From: Hydrolagus affinis
Taxonomy: Eukaryota
NCBI GenBank assembly: GCA_012026655.1
Contig: JAAILG010000679.1
Coordinates: 1-64,000 of the forward strand
DNA length: 64,000 bases
Reading direction: 5' to 3'
Shown here: positions 17,034-52,679 of the stretch, one piece after another
Position numbering within the stretch: the stretch's first letter is position 1
Layout of the letters: each line of letters begins with the position of its first letter
Translations under genes and position numbers: made by a program
Notes under the pieces: generated by a model
Told to the model about the DNA's origin: nothing
The model's input: the letters and a program-made list of their open reading frames with translations, nothing else
The model's database searches: none

Positions 17034-17152
17034 CTTAAAGCCCGATGACTTGATGTGAATTCCCCGTTTGGTCAGTGTTGACTTCATTCTGATAAAAAAT
17101 GATCGTTCCAAGGTATTGTCATTACTCAGTAAACTTGGGCTTGTAGATTCCA
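17034..17152 (-). CDS. NPAS3: NPAS3 internal coding exon, 119 bp: (V)[39 protein letters not shown]
   Basis: Not in the ORF track; found by reading the minus strand. Acceptor cccacag|TG GAA, donor TTT AAG|gtaaac. Contains the [16 protein letters not shown] motif of the SIM/NPAS/trh class. Phase 1 to 0. Confidence 0.97.
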
Positions 17153-25065: not shown

Positions 25066-25094
25066 AAGAGAGGGATGGAAAGAGGTGCTCCACA

Positions 25095-25350
25095 CCATCT
25101 TTCCCTCCCTCTCCCCCCTTGCCCTCTTTTCCCCCTTTCTCCCCTGGCCCCATTTCTGCGACTGTTTGTGGGACACTGTTGTGTGCAATTTGGCTGCCGC
25201 GTTTCCCCCACAAATATACTTTCCTGCTCTCCTTCTCCCTAACCCGACCACTCCCCCGCTGCTCTGGTCCCTACCTTTGGGATGTTGTTGTATTCTGTGA
25301 AGCTCTTTGAGACGTCGATAAGATGTGGAAAGAGCTATATAAAGGTAAGT
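25095..25350 (+). mobile_element. L2-like 3'UTR / SINE chimera, same architecture as 10240-10510
   Basis: C-rich tract, Deu core, C-rich tract, then tail TGTGAAGCTCTTTGAGACGTCGATAAGATGTGGAAAGAGCTATATAAAG. Confidence 0.75.
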
Positions 25351-25417
25351 TTTTTTAATATAGTTACAGAGTCACAAGTGCACTCGCCACATGAGACAAC
25401 ACAGCAACTTATATTTG

Positions 25418-25971
25418 CAACAAAAACAAAAGTTGCTGGGGAAACTCAGCAGGTCAAACAGCATCCATGGAGAAAGGAAAAAGAGTCAACGTTTCGGTAC
25501 TACAACCCTTCGTCATGACTGGGGCTTGTTTGGAGGGAGAAGTTTCTTAAAGACGTTAAAGGGGGAGTGGCAGGACATGGAAGGCAAAGGAGACAAAGAA
25601 GACAAAGGAAAAGGAAAAAAAAGTGTGTTAACTGATGGGTTGAATATGTGTTAAAGGCTTCAGGGGGAGAAACAGGGGTGGTGGTGGGGGGGGGGGGGTT
25701 TCAAAGAAACTGGGGAGAAGAGGTGTTTAGTGGTGATAGAATAAACAGAACATCAGAGCGGTAAGGGTGTCTGGGGTTGTGATTGTGACGGGGGGCGGGG
25801 GGAGAAACTCCTATGGCATGAAATGGCTGAAATCAATGTTGAGGCCAGACGGCTGTAGTGTTCCCAGTAAAAAGATGAGGTGCTGTTCCTCAAGCTTTCG
25901 CTGTGAGTCACTGGAACAGTGCAGGAGACCATGGATCGAAAGATCAGCCTCTGAATGTGAGCCCAAGTTGA
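25418..25971 (-). mobile_element. 5'-truncated Penelope-like retroelement (GIY-YIG endonuclease C-terminus plus 3' region with hammerhead-like motif), with 12-bp TSD
   Basis: Minus frame 25972-25811 reads FNLGSHSEADLSIHGLLHCSSDSQRKLEEQHLIFLLGTLQPSGLNIDFSHFMP*, matching the R..EE..I..L.T..P.GLN motif of PLE GIY-YIG domains. Flanked by AACTTATATTTG at 25406-25417 and 25972-25983. Confidence 0.9.
25484..25520 (-). ncRNA. Degenerate minimal type-I hammerhead ribozyme motif within the Penelope element
   Basis: Minus strand AGTC-ATGACGA-AGGGTTGTAGTACC-GAAACGTT-GACT: helix I AGTC/GACT, core (C>A)UGACGA, helix II GGT/ACC, GAAA, palindromic AACGTT helix III and a GUU cleavage triplet. Confidence 0.6.
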
Positions 25972-26250
25972 AACTTATATTTGTATACCTAAAGGTTGAG
26001 GGTCAAATTGTCCTATCTCACCTTCAACAATCCTCACAAACCTCATCCCAACAGTGCACCACAGGATTTTGACTGTATTGTGTAGGTGCCAATTTGAACA
26101 TTAGCAAGCAAGCTCCCACATACAGTCATAAAGCAAATAACCAATATTGATGTGGAGGACTGTTGGCCAGGACACTGAATAGTCTTTTTGAAAAAGTGCG
26201 ATGGGCTCTTTTAAGGTCCAACAAAGCAGGTAGACGGATCCTTATTATTT
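25972..26250 (-). mobile_element. Old DeuSINE whose tail is interrupted by the Penelope insertion
   Basis: Plus strand TGTTGGCCAGGACAC..TTTGAAAAAGTGCGATGGGCTCTTTTA is the reverse complement of the Deu domain. The tail continues on the far side of the Penelope insert (about 25395-25417). Confidence 0.7.
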
Positions 26251-38499: not shown

Positions 38500-39590
38500 A
38501 CAACAACAACAAAATTTCATTTGTACAGCACCTTTCACGTCAGGAGGACGTAAGGCACTAGACAGTCAATGTTTCGGACTCGAGCTAGGGTCGAGATCAG
38601 GGAGGGAGAAGGGAGGGGAGAGGGGAAGTGAAGTGATCAATGGCACGGTTGAAGAGGAAGGTGCTGAGGCAGGACTTGAAGGAAGCTACGGAGGGGGTGC
38701 AGTGGAGGGATTATGGGATGGAATTTCAAAGGTTGGGGGCAGAGTGGCTGAAGGATTACCCACTGATGGTGGGGCGGGGGACATGGAGCAGGCCAGAGCC
38801 CACTGAGTGGATGGAGCAGACAGGTTGGTAGAGGGCTAGGAGATCGCAGAGGTAGGGTGGGGCAAAGCTATGGAGGGCTTTAAAGGTGAGAACCAGGATC
38901 TTGAATTGAATCCTCTGAGTAATTGGAAGCCAGTGGAGTCAGGCGAGAATGGGGATGATAAGTGTTATAGAGCTTGGTGCGGGAGAGGACACAAGCTGCA
39001 AAGTTCTGGATGATCTGCAGCCTATGGAGGGAGGAGTTGCAGAGTCCGACAAGCAGTGCATTGGCATAGTCAAGTCTGGATGTGATAAAAGCTTGAAAAA
39101 GAGTTTCAGCGGCCTGAAGGGTGAGGTAGTGGCAGAGTCGGGCAATGTTGCAGAGGTGAGGGAAGGCAGAGCGAGTCATGGCTTGGATGTGTGGGAGGAA
39201 AGACAGTTGATGATTGAACAGACACCTAGGTTCCTGACTGGCTTGGTGAGGTTGAGTGTGCGACCATGGAAGTTGATGCTGCCAGTGCCTGAGGTGTGGA
39301 GGCATTGGTGCGTGCCAATCAGGAGGGCCTCTGTCTTGTTGATATTGAACGGTAGAAAGTTAGCTCTCATCCAGGATTGATGTCCGACAGTCAGTCTGTC
39401 AGGACAGCAGTGATCCTGAAATCGAGGGTGGAGGCAGAAAGATAGTTGGGCGTCATCCACATACATGTAGAAGTTGACCCCATGCCTGAGGATGATTTCA
39501 TCAAGAGGGAGCAGACAGATGTTGAAAAGGAGAGGACCAAGGACAGAGCCCTGGGGGCCACATACTGGACATGGATTCTTGAGAAGCTCA
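38500..39590 (-). mobile_element. LINE2 (L2) 3' 1.1 kb, 5'-truncated, with a frameshifted reverse transcriptase C-terminus
   Basis: Minus frames give [19 protein letters not shown] (YxDD), [39 protein letters not shown] and LHWLP, then the tail GTGAAAGGTGCTGTACAAATG..(TTG)n. Confidence 0.95.
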
Positions 39591-40365
39591 GAATAAAATG
39601 ATTTTGCCCCAAAAATACACAGTCAATCTACTTTACAACATATTCTGTGAAACGCTTTGAGAAGTCTCAACAACATGACAAGGCGTTACATCAAATGTAA
39701 AAACAGTCTGGTTAGAAAACAAATTAAAATAAAATAAGTGCAGTACGTCAATTGCTTTAGGCAGAAAAGCCCAATTTCACTAGTTCAGTACTCAATATCA
39801 CCATCGGAAGGTGCTAAGAGAGCCCACTTCACCGTGCAAAGTTTGCCAGATATTCAACAACAACAACAAATTCGATATGTACAGCACCTTTCACATCAGG
39901 AGGAATTCACTTCTGATAAGTCACAACTCAGGTAAAGAAAAATAGCTGAATAAAACCATCCAGGAAGCCAATCGGGAATGCAGAAACCCATGTGGCTTGA
40001 CTTTACACTTGCGTAAACAGAATATCTAAACACCCAAGATACCTGTGTTTTTCCCTAGTTACTTTGAAGTAGTCTACATGTAGCAGTGAAAATGAATGTG
40101 ATCCACAGTGCAATACCACAGGGTTATAGCTGTCCCATGACAATGTGGGGTTGTGGCGATGAATGCTCAGGAGTTTTGTTCTGTGTTCACACTGTCAGGT
40201 GGTGGTTTGGCAGTAAGCCAAGATGCACAGCTGCAGTATAAATGCAATGGGTTTAAATCAATTTGGGCTTTGCTCAGCAATGGAGCCTAAAACATTCTTG
40301 GACACTACTGAATGCACTGTATCATAATGTTATTAATGAGCTGGTTGCGGTACTTGGCTTTTTCT

Positions 40366-52504: not shown

Positions 52505-52679
52505 CTGGCTCAGGGGTCTCCGACTGTGAGGACGAAGATGCTGAGCTGGCTCCATCCTCTGCGGTACCCTGTGAGAGAATGCCTCGCCCTGGGGGAAGTT
52601 TCATGCCCAGCTGCTCTGCCATCTCCACATGGTCTCCAGGGTGGACATAATCAAACACACTGCTGCCTGTCAGTTCCAC
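52505..52679 (-). CDS. NPAS3: NPAS3 internal coding exon, 175 bp (end of PAS-A plus Ser-rich insert): [58 protein letters not shown]
   Basis: Acceptor cctcag|GTG GAA CTG and donor GAG CCA G|gtggga on the minus strand. The peptide is near-identical to vertebrate NPAS3 as I recall it. Ends in phase 1, matching the next exon. Confidence 0.97.

Follow-up and report, generated by a model that had tools for sequence, protein, structure and literature searches.

The stretch of Hydrolagus affinis DNA analysed here (the window; 64,000 nucleotides of contig JAAILG010000679.1) contains part of NPAS3, identified by two minus-strand exons that match PDB 5sy7_B (E 3.6e-31 and 4.8e-33). Of the NPAS3 exons, the one next upstream of the insert described here, from the PAS-A region, lies at 52505–52679 and the one next downstream at 17034–17152. 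The minus-strand intron between them (17153–52504; 35,352 bp) is presumably transcribed, given the structure of the gene, and carries a 554-bp insert at 25418–25971, 8.3 kb upstream of the 3' splice site. Both NPAS3 and the insert are on the minus strand, and the insert therefore lies in sense orientation within the intron, as the first-pass annotation of this DNA had reported.

Re-reading of the window confirms the boundaries of the insert and an exact 12-bp duplication, AACTTATATTTG, on either side of it. One copy (25406–25417) adjoins the element 3' end and the other (25972–25983) the truncated 5' end; neither has a strand, and both are placed by the exact repeat together with the ends of the family alignment. 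At the 5' junction, 2 bases (TT) could belong to either the element or the duplication. For a given pair of junctions, the computed chance of sharing an exact 12-mer is about 3e-7. In the family alignment, homology of sister copies to the insert ends at both junctions, with other sequence beyond, which identifies the 12-bp repeat as host DNA; the possibility that it is element sequence is ruled out, since it is not matched by sister copies at either end. The 5' junction is spanned by a contig of public DNA run X8 (organism B), which extends 38 bases into the element, and both junctions are spanned by contigs of runs X2 and X5 (organism A), whose 25–28 bases inside the element fall under the 31-base rule of the run search. 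The insertion is thus no assembly artefact and is present beyond this sample. The search of public runs listed no RNA run with this sequence, a result that says nothing about expression.

Other features lie in the same region. A purine/pyrimidine hairpin with 16-base arms (25068–25113) gives only sub-threshold microRNA matches, and is likely to be a low-complexity chance structure or part of another repeat. The depth of the public runs reveals a second, very high-copy repeat (25095–25340) adjoining the insertion. Elsewhere in the same NPAS3 intron, a broken LINE-type reverse-transcriptase fragment is present on the minus strand (38759–39627), with a Pfam RVT_1 match at 39179–39622 (E 4.4e-09).

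The insert (25418–25971, minus strand) is a 5'-truncated copy of a Penelope-like, Neptune-type retrotransposon, privately diverged at 20 of 553 scored positions (3.6%). It begins with the final 53 codons of the element ORF, stop codon included (25811–25972, minus strand; codons from 25972 to 25814, stop at 25811–25813). The assignment of this open stretch to the C-terminus of a GIY-YIG endonuclease holds: it aligns to the C-terminus of longer family copies with 74–94% identity, and lies downstream of the GIY-YIG motif itself, which the longer copies carry upstream as VVY...YIG. A Pfam search of the 53-codon peptide gives no match, and one of four longer-copy peptides gives a weak GIY-YIG match (E 0.026), below the curated cut-off. 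The endonuclease is preceded by a linker of the form C-x4-C-x2-C, seen as a CQRRRCNTC-type motif in three of the four longer copies, with the last C altered in the fourth. Copies L026 and L016 also encode motifs, picked out by eye, that resemble those of a reverse transcriptase; a peptide from this region matches nothing in Pfam or the PDB. A CX2-5CxxC linker between reverse transcriptase and endonuclease is a mark of Neptune and Nematis elements (PMC8557442). The linker motif and the type of host suggest Neptune rather than Nematis. The literature search turned up nothing on Neptune elements in cartilaginous fish.

Downstream of the ORF, the copy has a pyrimidine-rich non-coding 3' region (25521–25810, minus strand), with a run of Cs at about 25683–25697, then a hammerhead motif, and then the element 3' end (25418–25483, minus strand), which terminates at the first of the family's two end points and so lacks an optional tail of about 35 bases. 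The family is abundant, with 2486 first-look candidates for the element 3' end genome-wide, and 546 and 4255 genomic matches to two exact 25-base anchors. A sample of 92 copies in 80 stretches was drawn from the first 100 listed of the 546 subfamily copies, omitting the copy in the window itself and the final seven listed; the anchor used lies downstream of the hammerhead motif and outside it. The 92 copies are not fully independent: 12 stretches contain two arms of one insertion, and L064 and L065 (G000:C283) are near-identical, share a flank and lie in opposite orientation 7.6 kb apart, as would result from inverted duplication of the locus or from an assembly effect. The 3' ends of 52 of the 92 copies fall at +43 to +66 from the anchor and those of the other 40 at +80 to +100, with the NPAS3 copy at +52. 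An inverted piece of the element is joined at the 5' end in 50/92, and the inverted arms are often head-to-head pairs about 100–130 bases apart inside one duplication. Truncation at the 5' end, inverted 5' pieces, an optional tail of 30–40 bases and target-site duplications are all traits of Penelope-type elements.

The hammerhead motif, AGTC-ATGACGA-AGGGTTGTAGTACC-GAAACGTT-GACT, is present on the minus strand from 25520 to 25484, as first described. It has a helix I of AGUC/GACU, a core and a helix II, in the layout reported by PMC4209133, and an ACGU palindrome at 25489–25492 (minus strand). The sequence pattern, the family comparison and the published layout all agree with a minimal type-I hammerhead. 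The first-pass annotation had proposed a check with covariance models, and this lends no help: Rfam returns no hammerhead among 22 matches to the window up to E 10. The call therefore rests on the pattern, the family comparison and the literature. In an intact copy, cleavage on the minus strand is predicted between 25488 and 25487. The base before the cut, position 17 (25488), is U in 86 of 87 copies, and GUU is a slower cleavage triplet than GUC. No second hammerhead motif occurs in the window, on either strand, with up to 4 substitutions allowed. A non-LTR retrozyme, in which tandem units each carry a hammerhead, does not fit the single motif in the window.

The motif of the NPAS3 copy is damaged in two places. 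Comparison of copies reveals a private C-to-A change at core position 3 (25516, minus strand), so that A3 faces G8; the C3–G8 pair is broken, as first noted, and this likely kills the motif. In addition, two private changes in helix II (25498–25499, minus strand) give TACC for ACCC, damage that is absent from the first-pass annotation. Folding predictions put the in-register helix II pairs at 0.04 or less and a slipped 3-bp helix at 0.93–0.96, compared with 0.93–1.0 for the helices of the bare family 37-mer. Helix I is predicted to form in the bare NPAS3-copy 37-mer; with 20–60 bases of downstream flank, its predicted probability is 0.03–0.06, versus a mean of 0.38–0.62 for eight intact copies, and adding 60 bases to each side gives 0.01, versus 0.15. 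The A3 change strengthens a competing hairpin in the folding model. A pairing predicted between GAAGGG of the core and helix II and CCUUUC just downstream (25464–25512) would compete with the hammerhead fold, in intact copies too, and might be what the element protein has to undo.

The same pattern with position 3 left free has 869 matches genome-wide, with C in 854, T in 7, G in 5 and A in 3. This refutes the suggestion that the family as a whole has a non-canonical core. At family level, the CUGANGA and GAAA boxes, helices I and II and the 15–16 palindrome are all present: the layout consists of a 4-pair helix I, an A left unpaired just beyond A9, a short helix II and GAAACGUU with the ACGU palindrome. 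Variation in helix I is limited to C or U opposite G, which keeps the pair and affects one side only. For helix II, the survey pattern fixes GGG/CCC and leaves loop II variable; among the 100 listed of 109 variants at the fourth helix II position, about four restore the pair, and no two-sided covariation was seen. In a related subfamily (L128–L145) with loop II variants of CCGUGG type, this fourth pair is mostly lost, while both core boxes are kept, these being fixed by the search pattern.

A family or subfamily that still cleaves with an A3 core is a reading to which almost no credence can be given. Natural core variants do exist, for example U3–A8 in Schistosoma Penelope elements (PMC4209133) and others (PMC3088659), and variant cores listed in the supplements of both papers may bear on A3. 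However, the three A3 matches are at unrelated loci, show no compensation at position 8 of the pattern, and align over the element only, without common flanks; they are therefore three separate events. About 99% of the read depth at 25516 in four public DNA runs is the C3 base, a depth swamped by sister copies. In the anole Penelope element, moreover, a single C3G or G8C change abolishes cleavage (PMC11167929), C3A not being among the changes assayed there.

The 5' ends of the family are clustered at the hammerhead. Truncation within 110 bases of the anchor is seen in 83 copies. In 49 of them the start falls in an 8-base interval at the first hammerhead bases (equivalent to window positions 25514–25521), and an inverted piece lies upstream in 32 of these 49. 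The binomial p against an even spread is about 1e-32, a value overstated by the non-independence of the copies. Only 2/83 start at the hammerhead cut site. As starts fall at the first hammerhead bases and not at the cut, the template is mostly uncut RNA. The start site, CCAGTYC, fits the consensus forms of an initiator and of a splice acceptor; the cluster could also be read as a stop of reverse transcription or as the place where the inverted arm was primed. A mostly uncut template is in line with the anole element, for which PMC11167929 reports that RNA reads do not stop at the cut site. The literature search found no paper stating such a cluster of 5' ends at the start of a hammerhead. This family-level cluster is the more useful lead, for it touches on the role of the hammerhead in Penelope elements, a question still open.

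The first-pass annotation had also offered, as one of two alternatives, that the NPAS3 motif was inactivated, as expected if self-cleavage harmed the host transcript. Spelled out as host selection, an intact motif would have cut the NPAS3 pre-mRNA and lowered NPAS3, and inactivating changes would then have been fixed. Decay of the core across copies does not support this. One position polymorphic between subfamilies was omitted from the change counts. In the 92 copies, 13 of 589 non-CpG core sites are changed (2.2%) versus 111 of 4400 non-core sites (2.5%), an odds ratio of 0.87 (95% CI 0.45–1.57), and decay is concentrated at CpG sites (68/453; 15%). Genome-wide, 15 matches have an altered core G5 and 35 are altered at a loop G that likewise sits in a TG context, with the 854 intact matches as the reference for both (odds ratio 0.43; CI 0.22–0.81; p 0.006). 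If anything, therefore, the hammerhead core is better kept than other bases, as would fit a need of active source elements for it. Genome-wide rates of this kind could miss selection at a few loci, NPAS3 included. Two further comparisons were dropped: a flank-C control (55 changed versus 854), which is inflated because many copies are truncated exactly there, and strand skew as a proxy for orientation relative to host genes, which is weak and changes sign inside NPAS3.

Damage of the kind seen in NPAS3 is common. Among 32 copies with the whole motif, 13 have a core defect and 19 a defect of some kind, and a perfect 37-mer is found in 8/92. The chance of at least one change in the 11 core bases of the NPAS3 copy is about 0.33. 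Its motif has three changes in 37 letters, versus 17 in the other 516 (Fisher p 0.14); 1.2 would be expected, with a probability of 0.125 for three, or 0.34 if the adjacent pair is counted as one event. This mild excess is the sole evidence here that leans toward selection, and the damage is within chance.

The sense orientation of the insert in a conserved gene also speaks for selection, as do three published observations: protein-assisted cleavage in a related element (PMC11167929); the knockdown of genes by intronic ribozymes in fish, where mRNA drops by as much as 20-fold when a zebrafish intron carries a fast engineered hammerhead, and by less than 3-fold with three others (PMC11856399); and the finding of fewer retrozymes than expected in Xenopus introns, strand disregarded (bioRxiv 10.64898/2026.07.22.740005). 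Harm to the host from an intronic ribozyme is thus possible for fast ribozymes, but does not suit a lone minimal motif. Single minimal motifs show no cleavage in vitro, and dimers little (PMC4209133), and the anole hammerhead is reported to cleave only with the element protein, its cleavage not being needed for insertion (PMC11167929). Since the published minimal Penelope motifs are inactive as single RNAs unless a partner or the element protein is present, there would be little to select against. Dimeric Penelope hammerhead variants are also reportedly the subject of work by Lunse et al. A harmful insertion, moreover, would more simply be lost than kept and mended by a second mutation. Inactivation by host selection is accordingly very improbable; were it real, it would have no natural precedent, within the literature searched, as a case in which a host knocks out a transposon ribozyme and thereby spares its own transcript.

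Help in trans for the cutting of NPAS3 could come from the element protein, or from one of the thousands of sister RNAs through the ACGU palindrome. In a bolder reading, sense-intronic copies of the family would be dormant cut sites in pre-mRNAs, woken by the protein or by a sister RNA, from which NPAS3 escaped through three selected changes. This must be counted a long shot, although if true it would place host–transposon conflict at the level of ribozyme chemistry.

It is also very unlikely that the changes arose during retrotransposition, through reverse-transcriptase error or a defective source, leaving the motif dead on arrival. The adjacent change to TA can be read as a single slip event, which would suit such an origin. 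Against it, A is found at 25516 in none of 41 other alignments covering the site, and hence no source lineage carried A3; the 17 further private changes point instead to long residence. The outcome would be the same in one respect, as an origin during retrotransposition likewise gives host selection no role.

The reading that we hold with considerable confidence is that this is a truncated Penelope-like copy, in sense in an NPAS3 intron, whose hammerhead most likely owes its damage to neutral mutation since insertion and is predicted to be inert. What is known of Penelope elements suggests the following course: the endonuclease would have nicked an AT-rich site, reverse transcription would have begun inside the element RNA at the first of the two family start points and halted after 554 bases, and repair would have left the 12-bp duplication. 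Neutral mutation in place would then have damaged the motif. Even before this, the motif probably never cut NPAS3 pre-mRNA appreciably, as a minimal hammerhead depends on the element protein or on another copy, and the window has no second motif.

Read in this way, the NPAS3 insert is a real but ordinary relic of a known kind. Decayed Penelope ends of this sort were described in 2014, and a further one in a fish intron matters little in itself. Of wider use is the negative result that the core decays no faster than neighbouring bases in this genome, which argues against hosts generally having to silence such motifs.

Comparison with known systems places the motif closest to the minimal hammerheads of metazoan Penelope-like pseudo-LTRs (Cervera and de la Pena, 2014; PMC4209133). 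Shared features are the type-I layout with CUGANGA and GAAA boxes, the unpaired base between A9 and helix II, G10.1–C11.1, the palindromic 15.2–16.2 without a loop III, and thousands of dispersed, highly variable single copies. Helix II is 3–4 bp in the present family and 7–8 bp in the Schistosoma motifs of the same paper. Unlike those minimal hammerheads, the NPAS3 copy has A3 and a damaged helix II, and the family has its predominant U at position 17. With the Neptune clade (PMC8557442) the family shares a C-terminal GIY-YIG domain, the C-x4-C-x2-C linker, 5' truncation, inverted 5' pieces, the optional tail of 30–40 bases and short duplications. The same Penelope layout, with duplications of 8–10 bp, is described in PMC3846280.

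The Poseidon element PAc of Anolis carolinensis (Frangieh et al., 2024; PMC11167929) likewise has two internal reverse-transcription starts that make the tail, AT-rich targets, and genomic copies that do not begin at the hammerhead cut site. It belongs to another clade, however, and its ORF starts inside the hammerhead, where the present family mostly has ACG. The amniote intronic hammerheads of C10orf118 and RECK (PMC3088659) resemble the NPAS3 motif in lying in sense within an intron. Those are active and conserved across species, whereas the NPAS3 motif is a repeat copy with a broken core.
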